Part shown: positions 6,584 to 59,747 of the stretch, in pieces
Position numbering within the stretch: the first letter of the stretch is position 1
Layout of the letters: each line of letters begins with the position of its first letter
Assembly (NCBI GenBank): GCA_043821645.1
Contig: JBDRCO010000037.1
Span: 192,001-256,000, forward strand
From: Pseudomonadota bacterium
GTDB lineage: Bacteria; Myxococcota; JACRCW01; JAFGSX01
Direction: 5' to 3'
Length of the DNA stretch: 64,000 nt
Made by a program: the position numbers and the translations under genes
Notes under the pieces: model-generated
Database searches by the model: none
Told to the model about the DNA's origin: nothing
What the model saw: only the letters and a program-made list of their open reading frames with translations

Positions 6584-6623
6584 GCACTGGCCGTCCGGTG
6601 CGCGACGACCCCGCACGAGGTTG

Positions 6624-8405
<1,782 letters not shown>

Positions 8406-21200: not shown

Positions 21201-21669
21201 CATCGCCAGCCTGTACCGGATCGGCGATGTGCACCTGCACCTGGTCGACGCCATCGTCAAGACCCCGGCACCCAAGGGGCTCAACGAGGAGCAGGCGGAC
21301 CTGTTCAAGGAAAAGCTGCGGGAGCAGACCTTCCCCATCGAGGAGCAGGGCGCCGAGGCCTTCAAGCTGTGCGTGGACAAGTCCAAGGAGCTCAACCTGT
21401 TCAATCAATGGACCCAGAAGTGCATCAACTTCCTCGAGGAGAACCGGCCGGATCAGCACCCGCAGATCATCGAGGAGCTGGCGGAGGTGAAGGCCGAGGT
21501 CCCCTTGCCGCCACCGCATGGCCTGGTGACCACGCTCAAGGCAGTGGCGCCGGCGAAGTCGGGCACGGCGGAATCTGCCAGTCCCGACGACAAGAAAGAT
21601 ACCGAAGGCGCCAAGACCGATGCACCCGCGGCCGAGGCTGCCGATGAGCCCGAGGAGGATGCATCATGA
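18223..21669 (+). CDS. gltD: Gliding motility TPR protein GltD (AgmU)
   Basis: Signal peptide, many TPRs, PDAWLAFGEYYF, YAVYKQGWCYYN, RFFYAELLY and C-terminal WAIASLYRIG..P.GL..E..YNQW-type region. Lies between gltC and gltE. Confidence 0.85.
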   Translation: MMHPSILSVLGRARALIACAALGLAAPALVAAVLVPSSAEAKKKKKKKEKDKPSGDRKAPGKDESDLGEKGSYGTPEVVKEKERTKVQLEARPTLTLDDFRSRKEAEKKEKIDEQLKYIEKIISMEPAKTEMPGLLFQKAELYLEQSEFFFFAGMGLDDKILEARDKKNKKDQKKLEAEKKKWLEESKRWKKDGVEIFAEIVDKYPTFDRLADVVYSLAQAYWDGGDKDKAIPYYRQLITKYPQSQFVPDAWLAFGEYYFGKADIQRALEAYQRTASYEDSKVFAYAVYKQGWCYYNKGQFEEAGDKFKEVILYSELNPKLLGDKKITLGREARKDFVVTFSHYGDPRRAVAEFKELTQDDAEQRKMLERLSDIYFGEGKDREAIVMYRTLMAMTPDDTRNPFFQARIVTCAKRLNDKRFVVKMARELVDHFQRVRTFAAAHKDDPKLNQEKVATDLADAEDLSDNTLRVLATTWHNEARKTKDDETFELAYELYGDYLDLFPDKKPAYEIRFFYAELLYHLERFEKAGDEYTKVLLIDPAKGKWSPASAEEAVRAYDEAVSDFDRKNKRPPLKGEAALKPLPVPNIKKKLLMASDNYIKHFPKGSIVVECKYKIAKTLYDYNNFDQAAERFLEITTDYPDNSRAEQAANLTLDIYNLRQEWKKLNGAARSFSQSRPLMKNEAFAKTLSEILENSSFKLIADEYEVPGDNLGAAKQYLKFVDEFPKSELADKAMINAASNFLKAGKDKESIQVRLRLVKAYPKSPLVPDAMYAIAESYEQVVDYKDAAEWLEKFVKLYPKDPRSKDALFNASIYREGLGQFKQALSTREEYLKTYPKADDVATIYLSLAGLHKQMSDEKKASEVYQAWGKKYGKGKDEEWDAKFKAVDVMARDKKSKKQAEQLEQGLVREYVRLGKKGWSQFKNETDAQARIRFTLADEEYEKYKKVKIEYPRDLNKKTIKKFQDTLKAKVAGKDKIKGVYTEVVKLGRPEWAIASLYRIGDVHLHLVDAIVKTPAPKGLNEEQADLFKEKLREQTFPIEEQGAEAFKLCVDKSKELNLFNQWTQKCINFLEENRPDQHPQIIEELAEVKAEVPLPPPHGLVTTLKAVAPAKSGTAESASPDDKKDTEGAKTDAPAAEAADEPEEDAS

Positions 21670-26511: not shown

Positions 26512-26606
26512 TCTGCGATTTCTCTGCGCGATTGCGAGGCCGGGGTGGCCGCGCCTGGCCTCGCTTCGAGCCGTGGTGCACGCTGCGCCGGCGACGGTGG
26601 TTTTTC

Positions 26607-38957: not shown

Positions 38958-39181
38958 GCGAGCGCGGCCGCGCAGGGATCGTCGACGCGAGGTCTGACCC
39001 GGCCATCCGCAGCGCCGGGGGGCTGTCGCCGTCCCGCAAAGCGTCCGGAAATCAGCAGGGTCCAGCGTTCTCCCAGCAAGGACCGGGCGGTCGGTGAGGG
39101 CGTGGCCCCGGGCCTGCTTCTTTCACGCCGCCATGGGTCGTATAGTGGGGGTCCCTGATGCGACTCGAGATGAGGGGTGAC

Positions 39182-42100
39182 ATGAGATCGTTCACGACAT
39201 TGATGATCTGCATCGCCGCAACCGCCAGCGTGGCCTGTCAACCCGTGCTTCACCCCGAAGTCAAGGAACCCAAACCGGCCAACAGCGCGGACATCTGCAT
39301 CGCACCCGGGGCGCCGTCGAACCTTCGAATCGAGGTTCAGGTCGATGGCATTCTGGTGTCCTGGGACAGCGGAAACGGCACGGCGAGTGGCTACGTGGTC
39401 GAGCGTCGCCTGTTCCTCGATCCGACCTGGGGTGAACTCGTGCGCGTGGCCGCGGGTGAGACGAGCGTGCTCGATCAGAACAACATCCTGCTCGACGCCC
39501 AGTATGGCTACCGGGTGCTGTCCTATCGCACCGTCGAAAGCACGGGGAACTCCTGCCTTTCGGATCCCACCGACGAGGCTGTGGCCACCACCTTGCCGCG
39601 CGTCCCTGAAGATGCGGCGGCGCACGCCTTTGCAGACCGCATCGAGCTGAGCTGGCGCGACGTGAATGACTTCGAGACCGGGTACCTCATCGAGCGCCGG
39701 CGCCGTCACACCGACCGCAGCTTTCTCGAGGTGATGCAGCTCGGGCGCAACGACGAGCGGTGGACGGATACGGACCTGGTCGCGGGCGACACCTATGACT
39801 ACCACATCTTCGCGCTCAACCGCACCGGGCGCTCCAATGCCGTGCTGGTATCGGCACCCGCCACGACGTCAACCCGGGTTCCACGCCCACCGCAGCTCTC
39901 CTGGTCCGCGGCTCCCTATCTCGACACGCAGTGCGTGCTGCAGCTCGAGGCGCAGGCGGTATTTGACACCGACCTCGGGGCGGCCTACGACGCCGACCGT
40001 TCCAGTTTCAGTGCCCCCCCCCTGACCTCGCCCGCGGTGACCAGCGTGGCCGAGGGCAGCGATCGCTACGCACTGTCCGCAGCCAACACCAGCCTGGCGC
40101 AGGGGCAGGTGCTCGCGTCCTGGGAGGTCTGGGACACCCTGGAGGGCGGCGCCACCCTGCAGCGCAACCTGCTCTTACAGCGCAACTCGGTGCAACGTGC
40201 CCGCGAGCGCCTGCCGCGACCCCAGATCGGCGATGACGACGGAGCAGGGCGTCAAGCCCTCATCCCGGGCTGCGCATCCTGTCAGGGGCGTCGCGGCTCA
40301 CTCGCCCTGGGCTGGGATCACGTGTGCAGCCTCACCGACCAGGGCCAGGCCCAGTGCTGGGGTCTCAACCACGTCGGACAGCTGGGCAATGGCGTGGCCG
40401 CCTGGACCAGCAACTCGGCGGTGGTGTGCTCTGGCGACGTGGGTCAGCCCTGTGCCAGAACGCTGCAGAACGTGACCGCGCTCGATCTTGGCGAGGGCTC
40501 GACCTGCGCCGTGACCGAGGACGGCGAGGCACGCTGCTGGGGTGACAATGGCGACGGGCAGCTCGGCGACGGCTTCTGGGGCGAGGAGAGCGCCTCGGTC
40601 CCGCAGACCGTGTGCCAGGGTGGGCAGCGTCGGAATGGCACCTGCGTGTCGCTGGACAATGTGGTCTCACTGAGTGCGTCCTCGGGCTACGCCTGTGCCG
40701 TCACCGCCGACGGCGGCGTGCGCTGCTGGGGTGACCAGGGCGACCATCTTGGTCAGGGGTACATGGACGACGCCTACAACCCCACCCCGGTGTGCTCCGG
40801 GGACGTCATCTCGCCCTGCGGGGCTGTCCTCGACCAGGTCGCAGAGGTGTCGGTGGGCTACGGCTACAGCTGCGCCCTCAAGCAGGATGGTTCGGTCTGG
40901 TGCTGGGGCTACAACTCCTCCGGGCAGACGGGCAATGGATCCGACGACCAGCTGTCGATCCCGCAGCCTGTGTGCGTCCAGGGCGTGGCTGCCGAAGGGA
41001 CCTGCGTGCCGCTCACGGGCGTACTGGCCCTGGAGTCAGGCAACAACCACAGCTGCGCACTGGTGGCGGGTGGCATGCTTCTGTGCTGGGGCTCGAACAG
41101 CAGCGGGCAGCTCGGGGATGGGGGAGACGACAATCGCTTCAACCCGGCTCCGGTCTGCCTCACAGGCACCTTCGACGACGAGACCTGTGTGCCCCTCACC
41201 GGTGTCGAGAGCTTCTCTCTTGGATATGGCTACACCTGCGCCGTGCGCACCGGTGGCGAGCTCCTGTGCTGGGGCTCCAACTCCGGCGACCTGCTGGGGA
41301 CCGGGCTCAACACCGGCTCCAAGAATCCCGCGGGCGCGTGCATGGGCGGCGCCTGGGACGGGACGACCTGCACTGACGAGTTTGGCCTGGTCTATGACCG
41401 CTTTGACAGCGTCGAATCGGTCTTCGCCGGCGATGACCACACCTGCGCGATTCGCACCGACGGCTCGCTGTGGTGCTGGGGCGACAACTACTGGGGGCAG
41501 CTCGGCGATGGTACCGGCGTCAACCGCGAAAGTCCGGTCGAGGTCTGCCTGACGGGAAGCCAGGACAGCTCGGATTGCGTGCCCCTGGCTGGCGTGGCGG
41601 AGGTGGTGAGCGACGACTACGCCACCTGCGCGCGCCTCGACGACACCAGCGTTTGGTGCTGGGGCTCTGCGTCCTATGGTCGCCTGGGTATTGGCACCAT
41701 GTCGTCGTGGTACCCCAACCCCGAGCCGGTGTGTGAGAGTGGCACGGGTGGCTCCTGCGTCCCCCTGACCGGCGCCGTCCGCCTGGGCGCGGGCTGGGCG
41801 CGGGCCTGTGCCCGCCTCGACGACGGGCGACTGGTGTGCTGGGGGGATTCCACCGACGGACGCCTCGGTGCGGGCAACACCACGGACGTCAGCAATCCCA
41901 TCGACGTCTGCCTGACCGGCGAGACGGGCGTCGACTGCGTGCCCCAGACCGATGTGGTCGGGCTCGACATGAGCACCACCCACTCGTGCCTGATCAATGC
42001 CGACCACGAGCTCCTGTGCTGGGGCACATACTCCACGGGCAACCTGGGCACCTTCATCGCCAACACCGTGCCCCTGGCCCTTCCCGTGTGCGCCCAGGGT

Positions 42101-44341
42101 GCCAGCGTGACCTGCGAGCCCATGACCGGCGCTCTCGAGGTGTTTGCAGGGAGCGAGCATGCCTGTGCCATCGTCGACGTGCTCGGCGCCCGCCAGGCCT
42201 GGTGCTGGGGCGACGGCTACTACGGCGAGCTTGGCTACGGCGACAGCTACGACAGCGCCTGGCCGCAGCCGGTCTGCCTGAGCGGACTGTGGGACGGGAC
42301 GGTTTGCAGCGGCAGTGTCCTCGAGGGCGTCGAGCAGATCGCCCTGGGCGATGATCACTCCTGTGCCCGGCTCACCAGTGGCGACGTGATGTGCTGGGGC
42401 TACGGCTCCTTGCTGGGTGACCAGTGGGGCTCCAACAGCGACAACCCGGTGGCCGTGTGCCTGGGCGACTCGAGTGAAGTCAGCACCTGCGAGCCCCTGA
42501 CCGGTACCCTGGACCTGGTCGCCGGCTCCGACCACAGCTGCGCCCTGCTGGCAGATCGCACCGTGCGCTGCTGGGGCAGCAATTACCCATACACCACGGG
42601 CGACGGGCTCGCGGATACCTCCACGCGCGATGGTGCGGTGCCTGTCTGCACGCGCGGCGCCCGACAGAACGACGCCTGCTCGCTCGAAGCCCTGTCCAGT
42701 GTGCTCCAGCTCAGCGCTGGCAATAGGCATACCTGCGCCCTGCGCGATGACGGCACGGTGTGGTGCTGGGGCTCCAACAACCGGGGCCAGCTCGGCGACG
42801 GAAGCACCGAGGACAGGCGCAACGCGACACAGGTCTGCGGGAGTGGCACCCGGCTCGGTGGCGATTGCGTACCGTTGAGCAATGTGGTCGAGGTTCACGC
42901 AGGCTTCTCCCACACCTGCGCCGTGCGCCGGGTCGACGTGACCACCACCGAGGTCATCTGTTGGGGCGAAGGCCGCAACGGTGAGCTGGGCGCGGGGCCC
43001 GGTGCCCTGGCGGTCTATCCGACCGAGGTCTGCGCCAGCGGCAGCGGCAATGCCTGCGCGCCCCTGTCCGGCATCGTGAGCATCACAGCCGGTGCTGTGC
43101 ACAGCTGCGCGCTCCTCGACACTGGCGAGGTCTGGTGCTGGGGCTCGGGCCTCCTCGGCCAGCTCGGCAACGGCGATCTCGACGAGAACCGCAGCGCCAG
43201 TCCCGTGCCCGTGTGCGCGCGCGGCCGGCAATCCGACGGTACCTGCGAGCACCTGCAGGGTGTCGTGGCCCTGGCCTCCGCAGGCTGGAACACCTGCGCT
43301 CTTCTGGTCTCGGGCAGCATGGTGTGCTGGGGCGACAACCAGTTTGGCCAGGTGGGCTCGGGCCTGGTGCCTGTGGACTACCGGGGGATTGCCTATCCGC
43401 TGCTCAACCCGACCCCCGTGTGCATCTCGGGCCGGGGTATCTCCTGTGAACCACTGAGCAACGTGGTTTCCATGGATATCGGCCCGTCGCACGCCTGCGC
43501 CCTGACCTCCGCCGGCGAGCTGTGGTGCTGGGGTCGCAACGACCGCGGGCAGCTCGGGGACGGCACCTGGGCCGAGGCCGGATGCAACGACTACATCTAC
43601 AGCTCGGGCGTCACCTTGATTCCCTCGGCCTGCCGATTCCTGCCTGTGCGGGTGTGCGGCGAGGGAGCGGGACCGGGCTGCACGCCGCTGCAGGGTGTGC
43701 GCAGCGTGCGCACCGGAGATACCCACACCTGTGCCATCTTGCAGGATGGTGAGCTGCGCTGCTGGGGCGACAACCGATCCGCGCAGCTTGGCGACGGCAC
43801 CAGCGTCAGCTCGTACCTTCCGCAGCGCGTCTGGAACCAGGACAGCAGCGGCTCGCTGTCCGCGCTGACCGGAGTGGTGGGCCTGTCCCTCGCCACCTCG
43901 TCGACGTGCGCGCTGAGGCAGGATGGCACCGTCTGGTGCTGGGGCCTGTCCTGGTACGGTGAGCTTGGCAGTGGGACCTGGTACGGTGACGAGGGGTGCA
44001 CGGACTTCGAGGACTACGAGGCCCAGTGCCAGTTCCATCCGCAGCCTGTCTGCACGTCGACCAGCAGCGGCCGCTGCGACGGCCAGTGCACGGCCACCCT
44101 GGGCCAGGTGGTGGCCATCGAGGGCGGTGATCACCAGCACTGTGCCCTGCTCGAAGATGGGCAGGTGCGTTGCTGGGGTGACGGTCAGGATGGTGAGCTG
44201 GGTTCGGGCAACTCGGGCTGGGGTGCCTGGACCTGCGTGGCCGGATCGCCTTGCAGCTATCGCGACGCCACGGGCTGCGTGCCCGTCGAGGATCGCGCAA
44301 CGGCCACCTGCCAGGTACTGCAGGTCACGGCGCTCGACTGA
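39182..44341 (+). CDS. Large lipoprotein with two FN3 domains and 21 Cys-rich RCC1 repeats
   Basis: Lipobox SVAC; FN3-like segments (APSNL..VSW..GYVVER; IELSW.D..ETGYLIER..TYDYHIFA.N); 21 HxCA..G...CWG.N..GQLG.G units counted. Confidence 0.88.
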   Translation: MRSFTTLMICIAATASVACQPVLHPEVKEPKPANSADICIAPGAPSNLRIEVQVDGILVSWDSGNGTASGYVVERRLFLDPTWGELVRVAAGETSVLDQNNILLDAQYGYRVLSYRTVESTGNSCLSDPTDEAVATTLPRVPEDAAAHAFADRIELSWRDVNDFETGYLIERRRRHTDRSFLEVMQLGRNDERWTDTDLVAGDTYDYHIFALNRTGRSNAVLVSAPATTSTRVPRPPQLSWSAAPYLDTQCVLQLEAQAVFDTDLGAAYDADRSSFSAPPLTSPAVTSVAEGSDRYALSAANTSLAQGQVLASWEVWDTLEGGATLQRNLLLQRNSVQRARERLPRPQIGDDDGAGRQALIPGCASCQGRRGSLALGWDHVCSLTDQGQAQCWGLNHVGQLGNGVAAWTSNSAVVCSGDVGQPCARTLQNVTALDLGEGSTCAVTEDGEARCWGDNGDGQLGDGFWGEESASVPQTVCQGGQRRNGTCVSLDNVVSLSASSGYACAVTADGGVRCWGDQGDHLGQGYMDDAYNPTPVCSGDVISPCGAVLDQVAEVSVGYGYSCALKQDGSVWCWGYNSSGQTGNGSDDQLSIPQPVCVQGVAAEGTCVPLTGVLALESGNNHSCALVAGGMLLCWGSNSSGQLGDGGDDNRFNPAPVCLTGTFDDETCVPLTGVESFSLGYGYTCAVRTGGELLCWGSNSGDLLGTGLNTGSKNPAGACMGGAWDGTTCTDEFGLVYDRFDSVESVFAGDDHTCAIRTDGSLWCWGDNYWGQLGDGTGVNRESPVEVCLTGSQDSSDCVPLAGVAEVVSDDYATCARLDDTSVWCWGSASYGRLGIGTMSSWYPNPEPVCESGTGGSCVPLTGAVRLGAGWARACARLDDGRLVCWGDSTDGRLGAGNTTDVSNPIDVCLTGETGVDCVPQTDVVGLDMSTTHSCLINADHELLCWGTYSTGNLGTFIANTVPLALPVCAQGASVTCEPMTGALEVFAGSEHACAIVDVLGARQAWCWGDGYYGELGYGDSYDSAWPQPVCLSGLWDGTVCSGSVLEGVEQIALGDDHSCARLTSGDVMCWGYGSLLGDQWGSNSDNPVAVCLGDSSEVSTCEPLTGTLDLVAGSDHSCALLADRTVRCWGSNYPYTTGDGLADTSTRDGAVPVCTRGARQNDACSLEALSSVLQLSAGNRHTCALRDDGTVWCWGSNNRGQLGDGSTEDRRNATQVCGSGTRLGGDCVPLSNVVEVHAGFSHTCAVRRVDVTTTEVICWGEGRNGELGAGPGALAVYPTEVCASGSGNACAPLSGIVSITAGAVHSCALLDTGEVWCWGSGLLGQLGNGDLDENRSASPVPVCARGRQSDGTCEHLQGVVALASAGWNTCALLVSGSMVCWGDNQFGQVGSGLVPVDYRGIAYPLLNPTPVCISGRGISCEPLSNVVSMDIGPSHACALTSAGELWCWGRNDRGQLGDGTWAEAGCNDYIYSSGVTLIPSACRFLPVRVCGEGAGPGCTPLQGVRSVRTGDTHTCAILQDGELRCWGDNRSAQLGDGTSVSSYLPQRVWNQDSSGSLSALTGVVGLSLATSSTCALRQDGTVWCWGLSWYGELGSGTWYGDEGCTDFEDYEAQCQFHPQPVCTSTSSGRCDGQCTATLGQVVAIEGGDHQHCALLEDGQVRCWGDGQDGELGSGNSGWGAWTCVAGSPCSYRDATGCVPVEDRATATCQVLQVTALD

Positions 44342-45717: not shown

Positions 45718-45829
45718 GCCCGGTTTCTCGGCGTCCGTCATCCGGTCGAGCCAGCGTTGACTTCGCGGTGTGCGCTCACGACAATTCCGGCGCAGCGCCA
45801 GGGATGACGTCGCGTCGGAGCAGAAAACC

Positions 45830-47533
45830 ATGAAACTCGTCGAGTGTGTGCCCAATTTTTCCGAGGGCCGCGATCGCGCGGTCATCGACGCCATCGCCGC
45901 GGCCATCACCTCGGTCGACGGCGCGGCACTGCTGGATGTGGATCCGGGTGCGGCCGCGCATCGCACCGTGGTGACCTTCGTGGCGCCGCCCGAGGCCGCG
46001 GTCGAGGCAGCCTTTCGCGCCATGCGCGTGGCCAGCGAGCGCATCGACATGAGCCACCACCACGGCGAGCACCCGCGTATGGGCGCCACCGACGTGTGCC
46101 CCTTTGTGCCGGTCGCCGGTGTCACCATGGACGAGTGTGTTGCCCTGGCCCGGCAACTGGGGCAACGTGTGGGTCGCGAACTCGGCATCCCGGTGTACCT
46201 GTACGAGGCGGCGGCCACGCGCCTCGAGCGCGCGAACCTTGCCGACATCCGGCGCGGCGAATACGAGGCCCTGGCCGACAAGCTGCGCGATCCCGCCTGG
46301 CTCCCCGACTTCGGGCCTGCCGAGCTCAACGCGCGCAGCGGCGCCTCCGTCATCGGTGCCCGCGAGTTCCTCATCGCCTTCAACGTCAACCTCAACACCC
46401 GCGACAAGAAGCTGGCTCACGACATCGCCCTGGACCTGCGCGAACAGGGCCGATCGGCCCGAGGTGACGACGGAAAATTCCTGCGGGATGCCCAGGGCAA
46501 CAAGGTGGCCGTGCCCGGTCTGTTCAAGGCGGTCAAGGCTGTGGGTTGGATCATCGACGAGTACGGCTGTGCCCAGATCTCGATGAACTTGACCGACTAC
46601 AAGGTCTCGCCGCCGCACCTGGTGTTCGACAGGGCCTGCGAGCTGGCCTGGCAGCGTGGCCTGCGGGTCACCGGCAGCGAACTGGTCGGCCTCATCCCCA
46701 AGACCGCCCTGCTCGAGGCCGGGCGGTACTACTTGCGCAAGCAGGGCAAGAGCGCTGGCGTCGGTGACGACGAGCTGGTGCGCGTGGCCGTGCAGTCCAT
46801 GGGTCTCGATGACGTGGCGACCTTTGACCCGGATCAGAAGATCATCGAGCACCGCACCGGAGCCAGGGACGGCCGCCTGGTGTCCATGACAGGCCGGCAC
46901 TTCGCGGAGACCCTGGCCTCGGACGCGCCCGCACCGGGAGGTGGGTCTGTTGCGGCTCTGGCGGGATGCCACGCGGCGTCCCTGGTGGCCATGGTGGCCT
47001 CATTGACCCACGGCAAGAAGGGCTACGAGGCCGTGGCGTCGGAGATGGAGACCATTGCGGTCGAGGGCCATGCGCTCAAGGAGAGCCTGCTGGCTGCTGT
47101 CGACGCCGACACCGCGGCCTTTGATGCGGTCATGGCCGCGATGAAGCTGCCCAAGAGCAGTGACGGCGAGAAGAAGGCTCGCGACCTCGCCCTCGAGCAG
47201 GCCAACAAGTGGGCGACGCTGGTGCCGCTGTCGACCCTGCGCCAGTGCCTGCGGCCTGCCGAGCTGGCTCGCGCGGTGGCCGACAAGGGCAACCCCAACA
47301 GCCTGTCCGACGCGGGTGTCGCCGCCCTGATGGCTGCGGCCGGCGCCCGGGGCGCCCTGTACAACGTGCTGATCAACCTGCCCGGCGTGAAGGATCCGAG
47401 CTTTCGCTCGACCACGGCCAGCGAAGCTCGCGCGCTGTACCAGCAGGTGCAGCGAACCTGTGACGAGGTCGCCATTGTGGTCGAGGAGAGGCTGGCCAAG
47501 AGCCTGATGACGAGCGGCGAAGGCGACCGCTGA
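45830..47533 (+). CDS. ftcD: Bifunctional glutamate formimidoyltransferase / formiminotetrahydrofolate cyclodeaminase
   Basis: Motifs LVECVPNFSEGRD, HRTVVTF, HPRMGATDVCPFVP, GAREFLIAFNVNL and QISMNL, followed by a cyclodeaminase domain with APGGGSVAAL, GNPNSLSDAGV and NVLINL. Confidence 0.95.
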   Translation: MKLVECVPNFSEGRDRAVIDAIAAAITSVDGAALLDVDPGAAAHRTVVTFVAPPEAAVEAAFRAMRVASERIDMSHHHGEHPRMGATDVCPFVPVAGVTMDECVALARQLGQRVGRELGIPVYLYEAAATRLERANLADIRRGEYEALADKLRDPAWLPDFGPAELNARSGASVIGAREFLIAFNVNLNTRDKKLAHDIALDLREQGRSARGDDGKFLRDAQGNKVAVPGLFKAVKAVGWIIDEYGCAQISMNLTDYKVSPPHLVFDRACELAWQRGLRVTGSELVGLIPKTALLEAGRYYLRKQGKSAGVGDDELVRVAVQSMGLDDVATFDPDQKIIEHRTGARDGRLVSMTGRHFAETLASDAPAPGGGSVAALAGCHAASLVAMVASLTHGKKGYEAVASEMETIAVEGHALKESLLAAVDADTAAFDAVMAAMKLPKSSDGEKKARDLALEQANKWATLVPLSTLRQCLRPAELARAVADKGNPNSLSDAGVAALMAAAGARGALYNVLINLPGVKDPSFRSTTASEARALYQQVQRTCDEVAIVVEERLAKSLMTSGEGDR

Positions 47534-47573: not shown

Positions 47574-48797
47574 TCAGGCCTCTCGCTGGTACACCAGCCG
47601 GCCCGCCTTGACCACGCGCTCGACGTGGTCTGCCCCCATGTCGGTGATCACATGGCGGGGCTCCGTGGTGTCGAGGATGACCAGATCACACTGCGTGCCC
47701 ACGTGCAGGCGGCCGATGTCGTCGCGACCCAGCGCGCAGGCAGCCTGGCGCGTGATGCCCAGCAGCGCCTCCTCGACGCTGAGACCACAGCGGGTGACGG
47801 CCAGGGTGGCGGCCAGCAGGAGGTTCTCGCAGTTGGCGGATCCCGGGTTGAAGTCGCTGGCCACGGCCACGCGCAGGCCCGCGTCGACGAGGGTGCGACC
47901 CGGTGCCGGCTTGCCCTTGCCCAGGTAGATCTCGCAGGTCGGCAGGATCACGGCGACCACGTCTGCCCGCCGCAGCTCCCGGATCTCCCTCTGGCGCGCC
48001 ACCTCGAGGTGGTCCGCGCTCACAGCCTGCAACTCGGCGGCCAGGCTGCAACCACCGAGACGATGAAACTGGTCGGTGTGCAGGCGGGCCTCGAGGTTGA
48101 GCTGCTGGCCGCGCATCAAGATGCGACGCGCCTGATCGACCGAGAAGGCTCCTTGCTCGACGTAGACGTCGCAGAATCGAGCCAGACCAGCTGCGGCTAC
48201 CGCGGGCAGCATCTCCTCGATCACGAGGTCCGTGTAGGCCTCCGTGCGGTCCCGGTACTCCGGCGGCACGGTGTGCGCGCCAAGGAAGGTCGGTGTGATC
48301 TCCACGGGCTGCAGGGCCGCCAGCACGCGCAGCACGCGCAACATCTTCAGCTCGTCGTCGAGCGACAGGCCATAACCGCTCTTGATCTCGATGGTGGTGA
48401 CACCCCGCTGCAGGGCGCGGTGCAGGCGCGGTATCGCCGCATCGACCAATTCCTCCTCGCTGGCAGCCCGGACCGCCTTGACCGTTTTCACGATCCCGCC
48501 ACCCGCAGCCGCGATGTCCAGATACGTAACGCCGCGCGCTCGTGCCGCGAACTCCTGACTGCGATCCCCGACGTGGAGCAGGTGGGTGTGGCAGTCCACC
48601 AGTCCTGGCAAAACGGCATGCCCCCGGGCATCGAGGATGGGGGTTCCGAGGGGCACGGGTGGGAGCTGGGCTTGGGGGCCGTACCAGGACACCAGGTCGT
48701 CGGCTGCGACCAGGGCTGCGTTGCGGATCACGCCCAGGCTGCTGCCGGCTCCAGGCTCGCAGGTGACCAGGTTCCCGATGTTGTGCACCACCAGCAT
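47574..48797 (-). CDS. hutI: Imidazolonepropionase
   Basis: Motifs PGLVDCHTH, AGGGI..TV, EIKSGYGL, TFLGAH, SADHL and ASDFNPGS. Confidence 0.95.
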   Translation of the reverse strand: MLVVHNIGNLVTCEPGAGSSLGVIRNAALVAADDLVSWYGPQAQLPPVPLGTPILDARGHAVLPGLVDCHTHLLHVGDRSQEFAARARGVTYLDIAAAGGGIVKTVKAVRAASEEELVDAAIPRLHRALQRGVTTIEIKSGYGLSLDDELKMLRVLRVLAALQPVEITPTFLGAHTVPPEYRDRTEAYTDLVIEEMLPAVAAAGLARFCDVYVEQGAFSVDQARRILMRGQQLNLEARLHTDQFHRLGGCSLAAELQAVSADHLEVARQREIRELRRADVVAVILPTCEIYLGKGKPAPGRTLVDAGLRVAVASDFNPGSANCENLLLAATLAVTRCGLSVEEALLGITRQAACALGRDDIGRLHVGTQCDLVILDTTEPRHVITDMGADHVERVVKAGRLVYQREA

Positions 48798-48869
48798 GCT
48801 TCTGCTCCCGCCTCTCTGCGGCGCTCCCCGCCACCTGATGTTCTGGCGCGTGATCCGCTGGCGCTGGAC

Positions 48870-49538
48870 TCAGGGCTTTCCACGTGCAGGCAAGGTCTTG
48901 CCACCAGGCAGCTCCAGGAGCCGTGCCAGGGCTCGGGCTGCGGTACGAGCCGTGGCTGCGACCAGTTCGCCATTGTCGGCAAAACCATCACACTCGAACC
49001 AGCAACCGCGCGCCGACAGTCTCAGCCGGGCACCGCGATGATCGAGGGCATAGCGCACCAGGCGTCGCGCCTCCTCGTCGTCCAGGATAGGGGCGAGCGA
49101 TGGCATCGGGTCGTCGTGAGCGAGGGCGGTGGCGCGCTCCTCCAGATCAGGCCAGGGTAGGGGCCACACGGTCCTCGCCGCGGTCACGAGGTGACTGGCC
49201 CCGGAACCGCCCGCCAGGATGAGATCGGGGCCGTGATACAGGGCGGTCTCGGCCTCGACAACACACAAAGCCTGCTCCTCGCCAGGTTGGGCGCGATGCT
49301 CACGGTACAGCCTGAAGCGCTGGCCGCTTTCGTCAAACAGGACCGCGCCGCGTCCGGGATCGCGCCGGCTGCGTTGCACCTGCCCGCCCAGGGCCGCCGC
49401 GGCTTGATCCAGGCTGCCTGCCGCCGCGAGCAGTCGCGAACGACGGCGCTGGAACAGCCACAGGCCCAGGCCAGCACCCGCGAACAGGATGACCAGAAGT
49501 AGCGTTCCGCCCACGACCCACTCCGTCGACGTTGACAC
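48870..49538 (-). CDS. Hypothetical single-pass membrane protein
   Basis: N-terminal TM segment (VVGGTLLLVILFAGAGLGLWLF) followed by RRR; fills the gap upstream of hutI. Start uncertain. Confidence 0.55.
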   Translation of the reverse strand: MSTSTEWVVGGTLLLVILFAGAGLGLWLFQRRRSRLLAAAGSLDQAAAALGGQVQRSRRDPGRGAVLFDESGQRFRLYREHRAQPGEEQALCVVEAETALYHGPDLILAGGSGASHLVTAARTVWPLPWPDLEERATALAHDDPMPSLAPILDDEEARRLVRYALDHRGARLRLSARGCWFECDGFADNGELVAATARTAARALARLLELPGGKTLPARGKP

Positions 49539-49630
49539 CGTGGCAGGGCCACCTGCGATGCGTCTATGATGCCACGACCGGGCGTGAGGTTCCACGGTCC
49601 CCTCACGGTGCTGGGTCAGCGAGAGGGTGC

Positions 49631-51826
49631 ATGCGTGTCGTCATAGCCAGCGTGCCCTTTGCCACTCCCTTTGCTCCGGCCCTCGGTGGTCCCCTGGTGG
49701 CCGCCGAGTTCGAGGCGCAAGGCGTTGAGGCCAGGGTTGTCGACGGGTCCCTGCTGTGTCTGGAGAGCCTGTGGTCGCCGGACTGCCTGCGCAGGGGTAT
49801 CGAACACCTGCGCGATCAACTGGGTCACCTCGAGCGGCACGACACGCTGTCGCGCGCCGCCTTCGCCGGCTACCAGGAAGCCACCCGCGCCGTGCTCGGT
49901 GCACAGCAGGTCCTTGCCCAGGTCGGGGGCGCACTGGCGACACTTCGAGGCCACGGAACGGGCGAGATCCCCGAGCCGGCCACCTATGATCGCGCGCTCG
50001 GGATCGTGCAGGCAGCCCTCGGCCTGGCCTCGGCGCCTTTCTGGCCCGAGCAGGTCTCCCTGCACCGGTACCGTCCCCCGGCTCCGCTGCGCAGCGTCGA
50101 CGATCTGCTGCGCCATGCGCGCAGACCTGTGGCCGAAAGCTTGTTTGGCGAGGCCCTGAACTCCATCGTCACCGCGGCGGTGCTTGAGGACGGTGGGCCC
50201 GGGCCGGATCTGGTGGGCCTCTCGATCACTTTCCCCGAGCAGCTCGGACCCGCGGCCATGCTCGGGCGCTGTCTGCGCGAGCGTGGCTTTCGCGGTCACA
50301 TTGCCTGGGGCGGCGCTCTCATGGCACACCTGGCTGACGATCTGCTGCGTGCGACGCCGCTGCTGCAGGCGGGTCTCGTCGACGTCATTGTGCCCCATCC
50401 CGGAATTCAACCCCTGCTGCGATGGCTCGAGGCGGGATCGTCCACGATACCCGTGGCTGGAGCCCTGGTGCCAGGGCAGCCCTGGGTGCCCGGGACCCTC
50501 GACGTCCACGAACACGCGCGCTGGGTCGAGGCCATGCCCACGCCTCGCTTCGACGATCTGCCGCTGGATCGCTACCTCAGCCCACGCCCCGTGCTGCCCC
50601 TGCTGACGACGCTGGGCTGCTACCACCAGCGCTGCACCTTCTGCGATCACTTTCACTCCGTCTGTCGTTACCGGCCGCGATCCGTGAACCATGTTCTGCG
50701 CGACCTGCGTGTCCTTCACGAACGCTTCGCGTGCCGCGACATCTACCTCGTCGACGACTGCACACCACCCCGGATGCTGCGCCAGCTCGCCCAGGGGCTC
50801 CTGCAGTGGCGTGACGACGGGGGTCCCGAGCTTGGATGGATCACCGAGTGCCGCGCCGAGCGCGCGCTCCTGGCAGAGGGTCTGCTCACAGATCTCGGGC
50901 GAGCCGGCTGCCGCATGCTGCTGTTCGGTCTGGAGTCCGCCGACGACGGGGTCCTCGAGGCCATGGGCAAGGGCACGGACAGCGCGACCCTGAGTGCGGT
51001 GCTGCGGGCGGTTCACGCCGCTGGCATCGGCACGTGGTGCTTTTACATGGTTGGCTACCCCGCCGAGGACCCTGTGGCGGCCCAGGTCACCCAGGATTTT
51101 CTGGCCGCCCACGCCGAGGTGGTGGACGTGCTGGCAGGCGGACCCTTCGTGGTCACGCGACACGCCCCGGTGGCCCTGGATCCGGGGCGGCATGGCGTCC
51201 GGCTCGTCGGCGAGCGCGCCTCGGGATCCCGCAAGGCTCCGCCTCCTCGTCTCGACCTGCTGCTGCCGCACCAGGGCGGCCGGATGAGCGAGGCCCAGCA
51301 GGGGCGTGTGCTGCGCGCGCTGCTCGAGGACCCGCACCTGCAGCACTACCGGCACCCGCTGGTGGTCGAGGCGCATACCCTGTTCCTGGACCGTCGCTAC
51401 TACCACCAGCACGACCTGCGGCCTCCTTCCGCAGCTTCATCCCCACCCTCGGCGTCCACGGACGTCTGGCGTGCCTGTCTCGTCGAGCCGGTACCAGACC
51501 TCAGCGTGCAATACTTTCGCTTCCCCACCCAGGCCAGCCGCGTGCCATCGGCAGGCAAGATCACACAGGCTCCGACCGCGGTGCTTTTCGACCTGGCCCG
51601 GGGGCGTTCACTCGAGGTCACGGTGCCGGTGGCCGCCCTGGTCGAACGCTGCCTGGCGGCGCCGCGAACCGTCGACGAGCACATCCATCACACCGTGGAG
51701 CTGGGGCAAGGGGACGACGCCGAGGTGGAGCAGGCGATCACGCAGCTGGTCGAGGCCGGTTTCCTCGTGGTCCAGCGCGAGCGGTCGGACTTGACACCGG
51801 GTACCAGTCCAGGGGAGACCCCATGA
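49631..51826 (+). CDS. B12-binding-type radical SAM protein with C-terminal PqqD/RRE-like domain
   Basis: Motifs DLVGLSITFPEQL, GHIAWGGA, PRFDDLPLDRYLSP, GCYHQRCTFC, YRPRS, LVDD, FGLES, MGKG and MVGYP.E. The C-terminus LFDLARG..VAALVERC..RTVDE..AITQLVEAGFL resembles a winged-helix RRE. Confidence 0.88.
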   Translation: MRVVIASVPFATPFAPALGGPLVAAEFEAQGVEARVVDGSLLCLESLWSPDCLRRGIEHLRDQLGHLERHDTLSRAAFAGYQEATRAVLGAQQVLAQVGGALATLRGHGTGEIPEPATYDRALGIVQAALGLASAPFWPEQVSLHRYRPPAPLRSVDDLLRHARRPVAESLFGEALNSIVTAAVLEDGGPGPDLVGLSITFPEQLGPAAMLGRCLRERGFRGHIAWGGALMAHLADDLLRATPLLQAGLVDVIVPHPGIQPLLRWLEAGSSTIPVAGALVPGQPWVPGTLDVHEHARWVEAMPTPRFDDLPLDRYLSPRPVLPLLTTLGCYHQRCTFCDHFHSVCRYRPRSVNHVLRDLRVLHERFACRDIYLVDDCTPPRMLRQLAQGLLQWRDDGGPELGWITECRAERALLAEGLLTDLGRAGCRMLLFGLESADDGVLEAMGKGTDSATLSAVLRAVHAAGIGTWCFYMVGYPAEDPVAAQVTQDFLAAHAEVVDVLAGGPFVVTRHAPVALDPGRHGVRLVGERASGSRKAPPPRLDLLLPHQGGRMSEAQQGRVLRALLEDPHLQHYRHPLVVEAHTLFLDRRYYHQHDLRPPSAASSPPSASTDVWRACLVEPVPDLSVQYFRFPTQASRVPSAGKITQAPTAVLFDLARGRSLEVTVPVAALVERCLAAPRTVDEHIHHTVELGQGDDAEVEQAITQLVEAGFLVVQRERSDLTPGTSPGETP

Positions 51827-51879
51827 AGGAGCCACAGAGACAGCAGGTGCGGTCTCTGGCCACAGCAGAGGAGGATCGC

Positions 51880-52104
51880 ATGCCCGAGGCCATCATCATC
51901 TACGGCAAGGACAGCTGACCCTACACCTCGGACGCCCGTGAGGCGTTCGCCAGCCAGGGCCGCCAGGTCGAATACCACGATGTCACGCGCGACCGTGGGC
52001 AGCTGCAGGCCATGCTCAAGGCCTCTGGCGGCCGTCGCCAGGTGCCCGTCCTCGTCGACGCGGGCAAGGTGACCATAGGCTACGGCGGCTCCTGAGGCGT
52101 GTGA
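51880..52104 (+). CDS. Glutaredoxin-like selenoprotein with two selenocysteines (UxxT site and C-terminal U-x-x-stop; UXX-star type)
   Basis: Reading through TGA 51916-18 and TGA 52093-95 gives MPEAIIIYGKDSUPYTSDAREAFASQGRQVEYHDVTRDRGQLQAMLKASGGRRQVPVLVDAGKVTIGYGGSUGV*. Glutaredoxin signatures: IYGK..(C/U)PY, cis-Pro VPV, GG. GAGGAGG Shine-Dalgarno; hairpins after both UGAs. An alternative in-frame ATG lies at 51823. Confidence 0.88.
51919..51959 (+). promoter_or_regulatory. Bacterial SECIS-like hairpin for the first UGA
   Basis: Stem GGACGCC/GGCGTTC (51930-51948) starts after an 11-nt spacer from the UGA; loop CGTGA contains G; lower pairing CCCT/AGGG. Confidence 0.65.
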
Positions 52105-52110
52105 GCACAA

Positions 52111-52128
52111 GATCCGCGGTCGCGGATC
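52111..52128 (+). promoter_or_regulatory. Bacterial SECIS-like hairpin for the second UGA (in the 3' UTR)
   Basis: GATCCGC-GGTC-GCGGATC, 15 nt after UGA 52093-95. The GGUC loop resembles the E. coli fdhF SECIS loop. Confidence 0.65.
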
Positions 52129-53128
52129 AGGTCGTCCCGGGGACGGGGTTGGCAAACAGCTCGACACCGCCACCGGTGTGCCAGAACACCACGGTCTCGT
52201 CGGCGGCGATGCGCTCCTGCTCGAGGTAGTCCAGCAGCGCAGCCGCTGCCTTGCCGGTGTACACGCGATCGAGAAAGATCCCCTCGAGGCGCGCGAACAC
52301 CTCGATCGCATCCAGGGTCTCCGCCGTGGGCACGCCGTAGCCCTCTCCAACGTAGCCGTCGTCGACGCGGACGTCGCGGGCGCTGACCCGGGTACCGGTG
52401 AGCCGCGCAGCCTTCTGGGCCAGCATGAAGACATCGTTGGCCAGACCGAGCTGATCGCTGGCCACCGAGATGCCCGTCACCCGTCCTGACCATCCGGCCA
52501 GGGCGCGCCCGACCACCAGTCCCGCCTGGGTGCCGCCGGTGCTCGAGGCCAGGACGATGTGATCACAGGTGTCGCGCAGGCGCTTGAAGTCGCGCATCAG
52601 CTCGCCGAATCCTGCCACGTAGCCCAGCACGCCCACCGCCGAGGACCCGCCGAGGGGCATGACGTACACGTGTCGGCCGCGCGCTCGCAGCACCTCCGCC
52701 AGATCCACCGCAGCCTGCTCCCAGTCGTCCCAGTCCTCGGAATCGCAGAACTTGAGCTGGGCGCCCAGGATCTCGTCGAGGATCAGGTTGCCCGAGGGTC
52801 GGGCCGGAGGGGTGCCGCCGAGCACCAGGTAGCAGTCCATCTCGGCGCGCGCGGCAGCGGCGGCGGCCATGCGGCAGAAGTTGGACTGCACGGCGCCGAC
52901 GGCGATCAGGGTGTCGGCGCCGGCGCGCTGGGCATGTGCCATCAGGAACTCGAGCTTGCGCGCCTTGTTGCCACCGAAGGCAAAGCCCGTGAGATCGTCC
53001 CGCTTGCAGAACAGCCGGCAGCCGTAGAGGCGGCTCAGGCGGCTCAGGGGGGTCAGGGGGGTGGGCAGTTGAGCCAGGGACACCCTGGGATGCTGGGCCA
53101 GAAGCTGCTCGAACTGGGCCGGTTCCAT
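52127..53128 (-). CDS. D-cysteine desulfhydrase family PLP enzyme
   Basis: Motifs KRDDLTG..GGNKARKLEFL, GAVQSNFCR, STGGTQAGL, LDRVYTGKA and WHTGG. It has T/T rather than the E/L residues that mark ACC deaminase. Confidence 0.9.
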   Translation of the reverse strand: MEPAQFEQLLAQHPRVSLAQLPTPLTPLSRLSRLYGCRLFCKRDDLTGFAFGGNKARKLEFLMAHAQRAGADTLIAVGAVQSNFCRMAAAAAARAEMDCYLVLGGTPPARPSGNLILDEILGAQLKFCDSEDWDDWEQAAVDLAEVLRARGRHVYVMPLGGSSAVGVLGYVAGFGELMRDFKRLRDTCDHIVLASSTGGTQAGLVVGRALAGWSGRVTGISVASDQLGLANDVFMLAQKAARLTGTRVSARDVRVDDGYVGEGYGVPTAETLDAIEVFARLEGIFLDRVYTGKAAAALLDYLEQERIAADETVVFWHTGGGVELFANPVPGTT

Positions 53129-53290
53129 GTGTGCCTCGGATTCGGGTCGCATCTTAGGCAGCGGACGACGTTGTCACCAGGGGAGAGCGGTCGGTGATCT
53201 CCGAGCAGTGGGTTGGCTTTTTTTATAGAATCCTATTTTTCGAGGGTGTCATATATCTGTATGATATAACAAGAGAATAAACCGCTCATG

Positions 53291-53319
53291 TTGACATTCG
53301 GACCCCCACTTGCTACGTC
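53291..53319 (+). promoter_or_regulatory. Sigma70-type promoter upstream of the Fic gene
   Basis: TTGACA-N17-TACGTC with a TG extension, preceded by an AT-rich tract. Confidence 0.5.
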
Positions 53320-53429: not shown

Positions 53430-53577
53430 GACAGCGACCCAGGTTCGGAACGGCCAGAATCGTTGAGGCTGCTTGTGCAACTGCGCCGCGCCCTCTGCGG
53501 GGGGGCGGGCCCACAACACGAGCGCGGGATCCGGGTGTACCGAGGAGGTCCCGACGCTTGCAGTGAGTGAGCGCACG

Positions 53578-54363
53578 ATGATGGAAGAGCTCGATTTCCG
53601 TTCACGCTACATGGAGCTGGATGACAAGACCGACGAACTGAAGGAGTGGATTGACGAGTACGGTCCGCGCTGTTGCGAGTTCAGCGAGCACTTCGAGATC
53701 TCGTGGATCTACCACGAGAATGCCCTCGAGGGCGTGGTGCTGACCTACCACGAGATCAAGGCGGCCATCGACCAGAAGATCATCAGCGACGTCAATCTGA
53801 TCTCGACCTACCAGGAGATCAAGAACCAGAAAGAAGCTGTCGAGTTCGTGCGCCGCGCCGCCGGCAACAAGCGCACACGCATCAATCTCGAGTTCATCAA
53901 GAAGCTGCACGGCATCCTGTGCAATGACGTCGAGGGCAGCGAGGTGGGTCGATATCGCCGCGACATTCCGCTGCACCGCACGTACTTCCACGAGATCACC
54001 CAGCCGGCCAAGATCGCGCCGCGCCTCGCACAGCTCCTGCAGGGCGCCAACAGCAATGACTTCCGGCGCTGGCACCCGATCAAGCAGGCCGCGGCCTTTC
54101 ATCACGAGTTCATGCAGATCTTCCCCTTCTCGGAGCACTCGGGAATGGTCGGCCGCATGCTCATGAACTACTACCTGATGCGCGCTGGCTACATGCCGGC
54201 GGTGATCCACTCTGTCGACCGGCAGCGGTACTACGAGAGCCTGCGCGGTGTGCCGCGCGCCCTGCGGGAGCTCATCGTGGATTCGATGGACAATTCCCTC
54301 GAGAGCGGGATTCGCTACCTGCACGAGCTGGTGCAGGGACCCCAGAGCATGAGCGCCCAGTAA
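53578..54363 (+). CDS. Fic/Fido family protein with degenerate catalytic motif
   Basis: WIYHENALEG, IKKLH, GRYR, AAAFHHEFMQIFPFSEHSGMVGRMLMN (canonical HPFxDGNGRxxR) and DRQRYYESL. Confidence 0.88.
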   Translation: MMEELDFRSRYMELDDKTDELKEWIDEYGPRCCEFSEHFEISWIYHENALEGVVLTYHEIKAAIDQKIISDVNLISTYQEIKNQKEAVEFVRRAAGNKRTRINLEFIKKLHGILCNDVEGSEVGRYRRDIPLHRTYFHEITQPAKIAPRLAQLLQGANSNDFRRWHPIKQAAAFHHEFMQIFPFSEHSGMVGRMLMNYYLMRAGYMPAVIHSVDRQRYYESLRGVPRALRELIVDSMDNSLESGIRYLHELVQGPQSMSAQ

Positions 54364-58062: not shown

Positions 58063-58884
58063 ATGACGAAGAGCAGCAGGACATGGTTGGCTCTCCTGGG
58101 AGCGATGGCGATCGCTGCTCCGGGACAGGCTCGCAACACGGCAGCGTACTTCAGCCTCAACCCGGGCTATCAGTGGTACGACACGAGCGAGCTTATCATC
58201 GACAAGGATCCGGACACACCGGCGGCGGAGCTGGTGCCCACGCCAGGCTTCATGCCCGAGCTGCGCCTGGGCATCAATCTCAGTGGCTACGGCGGCGCCG
58301 AGGCCTTCATCGCTGGCCATTGGTGGGGCAGCGGCAACCAGTCCGGTGGCGGCGGGGTAGCCGGAGGCTTGTTGCGGCTGACACCCCTCGAATTCTTCCA
58401 GTATCTGTGGAAACCCATGGAGTCTCGCTTTGTCGATCTCGGCTTCAGCTTCGGAGCTGGCTACACCATCGTCGGCGAGGACTTCGGCTACCAGGGGTGG
58501 TTCCTGCAGTACGGCGTCGACCTGTCAGTGTTCATCCTGCCCTTTCTCTCCATCGGCTTCGAGCTGCCGATCCGGCAGATGCTGTACGCGCCGCTGCGCT
58601 ACACACATTTCAGCAGCAACCGTGGCCTGTGTACCCGCGGTGGCGCAGCCTACGATCGGGACGGTCGCGAGGTGCATCGCACGGCGGTACGCGAGCTCAA
58701 CCTGCCCGATGGCACCAACGTCGGTGCCCTCGAGGTGGACGCGGATGGCAAGGTCACCGGCAACTTCATCCTGACCGAGGTCGAGTCCAGTGAGGCCGGC
58801 GACATGTGCAAGGGCCCCGGCCCCGCGGCCTGGCAGTACACGCCCATGGTCAAGATCACGTTCCTGGTGGATTTCGGTATCTGA
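58063..58884 (+). CDS. Hypothetical outer-membrane beta-barrel protein
   Basis: Signal peptide, alternating aromatic strands, terminal ITFLVDFGI, and a Cys-bounded extracellular loop. Confidence 0.7.
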   Translation: MTKSSRTWLALLGAMAIAAPGQARNTAAYFSLNPGYQWYDTSELIIDKDPDTPAAELVPTPGFMPELRLGINLSGYGGAEAFIAGHWWGSGNQSGGGGVAGGLLRLTPLEFFQYLWKPMESRFVDLGFSFGAGYTIVGEDFGYQGWFLQYGVDLSVFILPFLSIGFELPIRQMLYAPLRYTHFSSNRGLCTRGGAAYDRDGREVHRTAVRELNLPDGTNVGALEVDADGKVTGNFILTEVESSEAGDMCKGPGPAAWQYTPMVKITFLVDFGI

Positions 58885-58943
58885 CGACGCGGGCCGCCCG
58901 CGGTCGGTCGAGCATCGACCCGCCGTGCGACGAGGAGGATGGC

Positions 58944-59747
58944 ATGCGACGACCGATGGCCCCGCTGTTGCTGACTCTGCTGGCGGCGAGTGCGGCGTGC
59001 ACCACCTTTGGCTTCCCGCAGTCCAATGCCCGGCCGCCCGACGAGCTCAGCGATAGAGGGCGCATGATCGCGATCCCCGCCGGGACCTTCAAGATGGGGG
59101 ACAACCTCGGAGAGCCGCACGAGTTTCCCGTGCATGACGTCGAGCTCGGGGGCTTTCGCATCGATGCCACCGAGGTCAGCAACGCACAGTATCAGCGCTG
59201 CACCGAGGCGGGGGTGTGCCGCGCCACCCGCGAGATGGAAGAACCTAGCTTCAACCCGCCCTCACATCCCGTGGTGGGGGTGACGTACAACGACGCCCGG
59301 ACCTACTGTGCGTGGCTCCGCAAGCGCCTCCCCACCGAGGCGGAGTGGGAACGTGCTGCGCGCGGTGGTGGGGATCGCCGCTATCCCTTCGACGGTGCGA
59401 TGGGACCCAACCACGGCAACGTGAGGGGCGCGGCCGATGGCTTCATCTACACCGCGCCGGTGCGTACGTTCCCCGCCGGGTGCACCTCCGAGGGTGTGTG
59501 TGATCTTGCGGGAAACGCTGCCGAGTGGGTCGCCGACTGGTTCTCACCGACCTACTACGCCGAGAGCCCGCCCGAGAATCCCAAGGGACCCGAGGCGTCA
59601 ACCCGCCTGCGCTCGGTGCGTGGTGGCTCGTGGACCGGCAACACCTACGAGGCGCGATCGACCGCCCGGGGCTCCATGGACCCTGCATTCAGCAAGAACT
59701 CGGTCGGTTTTCGCTGCGCCGCGAGTGCCGGAGACGCAGCTCCTTAA
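58944..59747 (+). CDS. Formylglycine-generating enzyme (SUMF1/FGE-sulfatase) family lipoprotein
   Basis: Motifs IPAGTFKMG, TEVSNAQY, HPVVGV, RLPTEAEWERAARG, DLAGNAAEWV, RGGSW and GFRCA. Lipobox SAAC; GAGGAGG upstream. Confidence 0.92.
   Translation: MRRPMAPLLLTLLAASAACTTFGFPQSNARPPDELSDRGRMIAIPAGTFKMGDNLGEPHEFPVHDVELGGFRIDATEVSNAQYQRCTEAGVCRATREMEEPSFNPPSHPVVGVTYNDARTYCAWLRKRLPTEAEWERAARGGGDRRYPFDGAMGPNHGNVRGAADGFIYTAPVRTFPAGCTSEGVCDLAGNAAEWVADWFSPTYYAESPPENPKGPEASTRLRSVRGGSWTGNTYEARSTARGSMDPAFSKNSVGFRCAASAGDAAP

Follow-up and report, generated by a model that had tools for sequence, protein, structure and literature searches.

Cobalamin (B12)-dependent radical S-adenosylmethionine (SAM) enzymes with a docking domain of the kind used for ribosomally synthesised, post-translationally modified peptides (RiPPs) have already been described. 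ApyD of aminopyruvatide biosynthesis (NF050148) is presented as a B12 radical SAM enzyme that contains a RiPP recognition element (RRE) and methylates a peptide (PMC10635010), and a preprint suggests MpcC as a possible RRE for B12 radical SAM enzymes (bioRxiv 10.1101/2024.01.23.576971). UXX-star family 1 selenoproteins are characterised in a review by a UxxT motif and two selenocysteine (Sec) residues. The present analysis concerns a window of 64,000 nucleotides (the whole stretch of DNA analysed; contig JBDRCO010000037.1 of a Pseudomonadota bacterium placed by GTDB in the Myxococcota), in which the gene for a predicted B12-type radical SAM enzyme with an RRE-like tail, P0001, is followed by a gene for a UXX-star family 1 selenoprotein. 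An earlier note on this DNA had read the two as a modification system, with the selenoprotein as substrate or reductant, and had known of no described pathway with this pairing. Taken as a whole, that reading is partly supported. ApyD provides a precedent for the enzyme type; the literature searched, which did not cover the work of Haft and Tolstoy (2025) on selenoprotein neighbourhoods, held no description of such an enzyme paired with a UXX-star selenoprotein.

P0001 resembles ApyD in its overall logic, which joins a radical SAM core to a B12 domain (predicted in P0001) and to a domain for docking a peptide, the last by predicted fold. It is not a member of the ApyD family (34 bits, cut-off 750, over residues 300-493 only). 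Unlike ApyD, whose cluster encodes several enzymes and an obvious precursor peptide, P0001 has neither such a peptide nor another maturase at its locus. The best-scoring named class B families were the PhpK P-methyltransferases (TIGR04479; 61.5 bits against a cut-off of 600) and the RiPP C-methyltransferases of TIGR03975 (54.1 bits against 281.85), followed by HpnJ at 45.4 bits; as with ApyD, these NCBIfam matches were weak, partial and far under the cut-offs. P0001 shares with PhpK and TIGR03975 a predicted B12 domain with an insert and, presumably, a non-canonical cysteine spacing. More distant relatives, proteins of 555-607 aa with ~30% identity to P0001, form a wider family that scores better (90-117 bits). 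As its members cover only ~70% of P0001, they lack the C-terminal tail. The same length class and domain set as in P0001 are found in a ~710-aa cluster of the ESM Atlas, named 'PqqD family peptide modification chaperone' and commonest in Chloroflexota, with Radical_SAM in 100%, B12-binding in 40% and PqqD in 32%. The tail of P0001 lies near this cluster (residues 611-714; query-normalised template modelling (TM) score 0.72), the likeness being structural only, with no alignment or E-value.

The gene for P0001 (731 aa; 49631..51826, plus strand) most probably begins at ATG 49631 rather than at the upstream TTG 49532, as the six subfamily sequences begin MR(I/V)VL or a close variant; it ends with the TGA at 51824-51826. 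The sole Pfam domain of a full scan was Radical_SAM (PF04055; 36 bits, cut-off 29.5), covering residues 326-477. The subfamily is very rare, with ~6 known members: among 5.8 billion clustered proteins searched, the close relatives were P0003-P0007 (41-45% identity), four of them full length at 700-739 aa. A plasmid collection yielded 13 distant radical SAM matches with 24.5-30.2% identity, all of which fell short of 80% query coverage. The cluster-binding cysteines of the motif C330-x4-C335-x2-C338 (GCYHQRCTFC; 50618..50644, plus strand) are invariant in 6/6 subfamily and 43/43 wider-family sequences, and their spacing is CX4CX2C, as against the canonical CX3CX2C.

Approximately residues 1-290 (49631..50500, plus strand; boundaries approximate) are predicted to form an N-terminal domain of the cobalamin-binding type, interrupted by a long helical insert, as judged from the homologues and from the secondary structure of the model. 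The B12-binding family PF02310 was present in 49 of 51 homologues of P0001, most of which carry it in this region, and in P0001 itself it was matched at residues 191-252 with an E-value of 0.039 and 14.2 bits, the cut-off being 32.1. The full-length model, built from 43 sequences, had a predicted local distance difference test (pLDDT) score of 87 and a predicted TM (pTM) score of 0.88. Its best Foldseek matches in the PDB were OxsB, TsrM, AprD4, MgmA, TokK and CysS (E 7e-12 to 5e-7), with OxsB and TsrM at about 1e-11 and TokK and CysS at about 1e-7; of these, AprD4 is one that we take to lack cobalamin. The class B (cobalamin-type) architecture, as the earlier note had assigned it, is well supported by sequence matches and by the modelled fold, and we infer that P0001 uses cobalamin.

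The tail predicted to be an RRE/PqqD-like winged-helix domain comprises residues 611-718 (51461..51784, plus strand). An RRE is defined as a winged helix-turn-helix whose elements run beta-beta-beta and after that alpha-alpha-alpha (PMC12710340). This order is present in a model of residues 611-731 (5 sequences; pLDDT 83), which has strands at positions 14-19, 39-44 and 49-54 and then helices at 55-66, 71-80 and 86-98, with an extra short strand at each end. The full-length model reproduces these elements, for the most part at pLDDT values above 90. When the tail model was compared with the PDB using Foldseek, 18 of the 44 rows shown were RiPP maturases or RRE proteins (TM 0.44-0.64), including TfuB1, TbiB1, TglHI, TigE, NisB, MibB, MadB, TruD, LynD, TbtB, CteB and ThcOx; we presume all 18 to be RRE-carrying. 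The standalone lasso B1 proteins TfuB1 and TbiB1 reached target-normalised TM scores of 0.60-0.64. The ESM Atlas, using its own model, placed the tail near a 95-aa PqqD cluster (TM 0.64/0.71). A profile of the tail, run against 1.84 billion representatives at E <= 1e-10, returned only P0001, P0004, P0005, P0006 and the fragment P0174, and this restriction to a small subfamily suggests a domain added for a lineage-specific purpose. According to the models, the tail has an RRE-like fold; it is highly diverged in sequence and subfamily-specific. The earlier assignment of a PqqD/RRE-like tail is therefore borne out by the predicted fold (models, Foldseek and Atlas) and not by sequence profiles.

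The second gene (51880..52104, plus strand) encodes a glutaredoxin-like selenoprotein of 74 aa with Sec13 (SUPYT) and Sec72 (UGV-stop). It is a full member of UXX-star family 1, matching NF041114 at 111.3 bits (cut-off 72) over profile positions 1-70 of 70, and Pfam Glutaredoxin at 41 bits. The protein itself does not differ from the family; its peculiarities are the upstream in-frame ATG and the radical SAM neighbour. The frame from 51880 reads MPEAIIIYGKDS-U-PYT...GYGGS-U-GV-stop, with in-frame TGA codons at 51916-51918 (S-U-P-Y-T) and 52093-52095 (U-G-V-stop) and a final TGA at 52102-52104. The source translation of the homologue P0067, in which TGA was read as W, shows W at each of the two Sec positions (KDTWHYT and GGSWGV) and the same GYGGS-W-GV end, indicating that the double-Sec form exists elsewhere.

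RNA folding placed a hairpin at 51929-51949 (8 bp, loop CGUGA) after the first Sec codon (51916..51949, plus strand) and another at 52111-52128 (7 bp, loop GGUC) after the second (52093..52128, plus strand). As candidate hairpins of the selenocysteine insertion sequence (SECIS) type they are suitably spaced, starting 13 and 18 bases past the U of each UGA, and their fold z-scores of -0.50 and -0.76 were not better than shuffles of this G+C-rich sequence. The second one is located beyond the stop codon, the arrangement needed in a UXX-star gene, and extends to the stop of a convergent pyridoxal phosphate (PLP)-dependent enzyme gene at 52127. Scans of the window gave no Rfam match, no tRNA of any kind (tRNA-Sec included) and no sel genes, and the plasmid collection contained no match to the selenoprotein. 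A read-through fusion of the enzyme and the selenoprotein was rejected, as the TGA stop of the enzyme is offset by one base from the selenoprotein frame.

On the open reading frame (ORF) reading of the window, the two genes form a two-gene, same-strand unit, the enzyme at 49631-51826 and then the selenoprotein at 51880-52104. They are separated by a 53-base gap if ATG 51880 is used, or overlap by four bases if ATG 51823 is used. The genes are probably co-transcribed. A promoter and terminator scan of 48700-53300 returned no sites of either kind. There is no further small gene near the enzyme as a candidate client, the upstream neighbour being divergent and the downstream neighbour convergent.

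The interpretation that we tentatively prefer, and to which we would give rather less than an even chance, is that the RRE-like domain docks the short-form selenoprotein, the Sec-bearing tail of which is acted on or carries the substrate; both the docking and the chemistry are what we infer. P0001 would be a peptide- or protein-directed B12 radical SAM maturase, most probably methyl-transferring, and its RRE-like domain would dock the client. The selenoprotein would be the most likely client, being the sole small protein in the unit. Its flexible C-terminal tail (GGSUGV) could reach the active site, either as the modification site or as the carrier of what is modified. A functional pairing would link the poorly understood UXX-star selenoproteins to an unannotated and very rare cobalamin radical SAM branch that has acquired a peptide-docking domain, yet has no visible precursor peptide, and it would give the RRE a concrete, testable client in the form of a folded selenoprotein instead of a short peptide.

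A narrower version of the docking interpretation, in which the C-terminal selenolate enters the cobalamin/radical SAM site and the Sec tail is itself modified (Se- or C-methylated, for example) or presents a metal(loid) for alkylation, is distinctly improbable. By analogy, the selenoprotein tail may be compared with the flexible Cys/Sec C-terminal tails of ArsL (RCCLKC), of the CUAEP/CCAEP-tail radical SAM proteins (NF040546) and of HgcA/HgcB. In those systems, the Cys/Sec tail presents a metal(loid) to radical SAM or corrinoid chemistry. The tail of ArsL, CUAEP and HgcB is on the enzyme or a ferredoxin, whereas here it would come in trans from a glutaredoxin-like protein. P0001 scored 18.9 bits against the NF040546 cut-off of 500, and the comparison is thus one of analogy and not of membership. 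If true, the narrower version would describe the first radical SAM maturase or organometal(loid) system whose client is a folded double selenoprotein.

Several observations weigh against docking of the selenoprotein by P0001. The normal binding partner of an RRE is an unstructured leader, which the short-form selenoprotein lacks. All Foldseek matches of the tail had E >= 0.024, with 0 of 500 counted matches at E <= 0.001, and the top three rows were the GdmN carbamoyltransferase, which is not an RRE protein. Pfam scans of residues 593-731 and 554-731 found no family even at E <= 10, PqqD (PF05402) included. A tail profile run against PDB sequences likewise returned no RRE protein, its best match being a designed protein (E 0.022). 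The pairing of the enzyme with the selenoprotein was seen once. Among the 41 pattern matches of a genome contig scan, one encoded a relative (L001; 35% identity, residues 1-480), and its contig ends inside the gene at enzyme residue 480, so that nothing 3' is visible. L001 is from a Deltaproteobacteria bin, and its upstream gene, a sensor kinase-like ORF, is unrelated to the neighbours in the window. Five enzyme homologues are on contigs of 52613, 10237, 41440, 7562 and 4937 bases; no contig size was shared between the enzyme homologues and the UXX-star matches compared (120 listed of 177 near-length matches, and 7 short fragments), a comparison of little weight, as gene finders rarely call genes with two Sec codons. 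Finally, the UXX-star relatives (177 near-length matches and 7 short fragments) vastly outnumber the enzyme subfamily (~6), and the family as a whole, like most of its members, therefore does not depend on this enzyme.

The abundance of UXX-star relatives and the lack of a contig-size match also speak for a different account, in which the two genes are neighbours with no direct link. The peptide of the enzyme would be encoded elsewhere, or its RRE-like fold otherwise used, and the selenoprotein would be a general redox or metal module sharing the transcript. This account, which we regard as possible but doubtful, draws further weight from the occurrence of RRE-like folds in non-RiPP proteins in the structure searches, as in the C-terminal domain of NGO1945. 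It has to contend with the shared strand, with the 53-base gap or four-base overlap, and with the lack of a terminator-like site between the genes (in a scan that was empty throughout). RRE-bearing enzymes in RiPP clusters usually have their client encoded nearby, and there is no small gene here other than the selenoprotein. Should the pairing prove not to be conserved, P0001 would be an ordinary new RRE-bearing B12 radical SAM enzyme beside an already catalogued selenoprotein.

The selenoprotein may instead be a dedicated redox helper that supplies or recycles a reductant for the enzyme, as in the resolution of a disulfide or selenenylsulfide that arises during turnover, while the RRE-like domain binds another substrate. 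Its glutaredoxin fold, with Sec in the active-site position and a second Sec on a flexible tail, and the probable co-transcription of the genes are consistent with such a role. The second Sec resembles the C-terminal Sec tail of thioredoxin reductase. However, glutaredoxin-type proteins are two-electron carriers, whereas one-electron donors of very low potential (such as flavodoxin or ferredoxin) are required by cob(II)alamin and by the cluster of a radical SAM enzyme, and we consider a helper of this kind unlikely.

The selenoprotein frame has two possible starts, and the earlier note had proposed that the longer form carries a leader. The sequence features on which that proposal was built are all present. 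At the enzyme stop there is an ATGA junction (51812..51826, plus strand), in which ATG 51823-51825, in frame with the selenoprotein, overlaps the TGA at 51824-51826 and is preceded at five bases by GGGGAG (51812-51817). From this ATG, a 19-codon stretch, MKEPQRQQVRSLATAEEDR, is open and in frame with the selenoprotein (51823..51879, plus strand). The second start, ATG 51880, has a perfect Shine-Dalgarno sequence, AGGAGG (51869-51874), five bases ahead (51869..51882, plus strand). Among the 1409 ATGs of the window, 126 (9%) have GGAG or GAGG at -14..-4, whereas three have a perfect AGGAGG there, among them 51880 and the real-gene start at 21666.

The four-base start/stop overlap is the usual coupling junction of this genome: ATGA junctions are also found at 18223/18226 and 21666/21669, and a TTGA overlap at 6621-6624 joins consecutive genes. 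Codons ending in A, which an ATGA junction needs, make up 5.1% of the 12202 codons of trusted genes, and an open in-frame ATGA would arise by accident in ~1% of cases (5.1% x 1/3 in frame x 0.65 for 18 open codons), a figure that is post hoc. This low chance, together with the usual form of the junction, suggests that some re-initiation may occur at 51823, giving a possible minor long isoform. A gene caller has also recorded a 31-aa ORF from ATG 51823 up to the first Sec codon (51823-51915) as the database protein P0180, which is 100% identical and on a contig of 3584 bases. As the enzyme record is on a contig of 314020 bases, the locus seems to be present in a second assembly, and gene callers seem to cut this selenoprotein off at its first Sec codon.

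The homologues do not share the extension. The NF041114 match to the long form (93 aa) starts at its residue 24, after the extension, and the 120 listed homologues, of 177 matches, are 67-83 aa long and cover 70-80% of the long form. The extension was shared by none of the 15 homologues in an alignment, ten of which begin 0-5 residues ahead of the first strand, and the closest of them, P0054 and P0067, begin MPE.../MPL..., exactly as at ATG 51880. The codon usage of the extension is poor as well. The 18 codons after ATG 51823 have a codon adaptation index (CAI) of 0.46 and a third-position GC content (GC3) of 0.67, and 3.0% of 8267 in-frame windows are as low; the means are 0.69 for in-frame windows and 0.38 for open out-of-frame windows, and the selenoprotein core has 0.76 (GC3 0.90).

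The end of the enzyme that creates the overlap is likewise non-conserved. Its final 13 residues (51785..51823, plus strand) are of low confidence, pLDDT being below 50 at residues 721-723 and 727-731, and the homologues end 2-9 residues past the last strand. The last 15 codons (51779-51823; ERSDLTPGTSPGETP) have a CAI of 0.41 and a GC3 of 0.67 and are without counterparts in homologues. The pattern suggests a recent growth of the reading frame into DNA that was once intergenic, as opposed to a designed junction. A co-fold of the tail domain with residues 1-31 of the long form (51823-51915) scored 0.02 against a mark of 0.32, without controls, and is informative neither way. The selenoprotein is most likely made mainly from ATG 51880, and the 19-codon stretch would be an untranslated spacer, serving at most a minor coupled isoform and not a conserved leader. 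Despite the coupled junction with GGAG five bases ahead, the ~1% chance and the recorded P0180, the account in which the RRE-like domain binds the 19-residue extension and the selenoprotein is modified is very unlikely, given the missing extension in homologues, the low CAI and the perfect AGGAGG serving ATG 51880.

Upstream of the enzyme gene lies a divergent ORF for a ~200-aa membrane protein (48870-49595, minus strand; Atlas feature score 0.96). In the Atlas, it matches clusters of hypothetical proteins, one of them commonest in Myxococcota, and it has a TM score of ~0.75 to 211-aa proteins and to a DUF3137-like cluster. Its start is probably GTG 49514, as the Atlas record begins at residue 28, and this start leaves a 116-base divergent intergenic region ahead of the enzyme. 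A 103-aa plus-strand ORF at 49191-49502 was considered as a precursor peptide and rejected, as the ORF on the opposite strand matches clusters of real ~200-aa proteins (0.96 and TM ~0.75, as above). With the divergent membrane protein being real, the 103-aa antisense ORF is an artefact.

Downstream, and convergent to the selenoprotein gene, is the PLP-dependent enzyme of the D-cysteine desulfhydrase/ACC deaminase family (52127-53152, minus strand), the stop of which lies 22 bases from that of the selenoprotein. It fell below every cut-off (CuyA, 318.7 bits against 450; TIGR01275, 258.4 against 289.4). It may place a C-S or C-Se lyase next to a selenoprotein, an adjacency that may or may not be meaningful.

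Further out, two histidine-utilisation genes lie a little upstream: FtcD, a fused glutamate formimidoyltransferase-cyclodeaminase (45770-47533, plus strand), and the imidazolonepropionase HutI (47574-48797, minus strand; 418 bits). A Fic/DOC domain protein at 53473-54363 (plus strand) has a GC content at codon positions 1/2/3 of 0.60/0.34/0.87, which is unusual for the genome; for comparison, that of the enzyme gene is ~0.78/0.50/0.81. A protein with a formylglycine-generating enzyme (FGE-sulfatase) domain is encoded at 58806-59747 (plus strand; 190 bits), with no sulfatase among the ORFs scanned. Giant proteins with tetratricopeptide (TPR) repeats, RCC1 repeats and FHA, Ser/Thr kinase and PEGA domains are found in the rest of the window, which, together with the Deltaproteobacteria bin of L001, fits a Myxococcota-like chromosome. 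Among them are a 4141-aa ORF rich in TPR repeats (26532-38957, plus strand) and, after it, a protein of 1727 aa that has numerous RCC1 repeats and one fn3 domain (39158-44341, plus strand).

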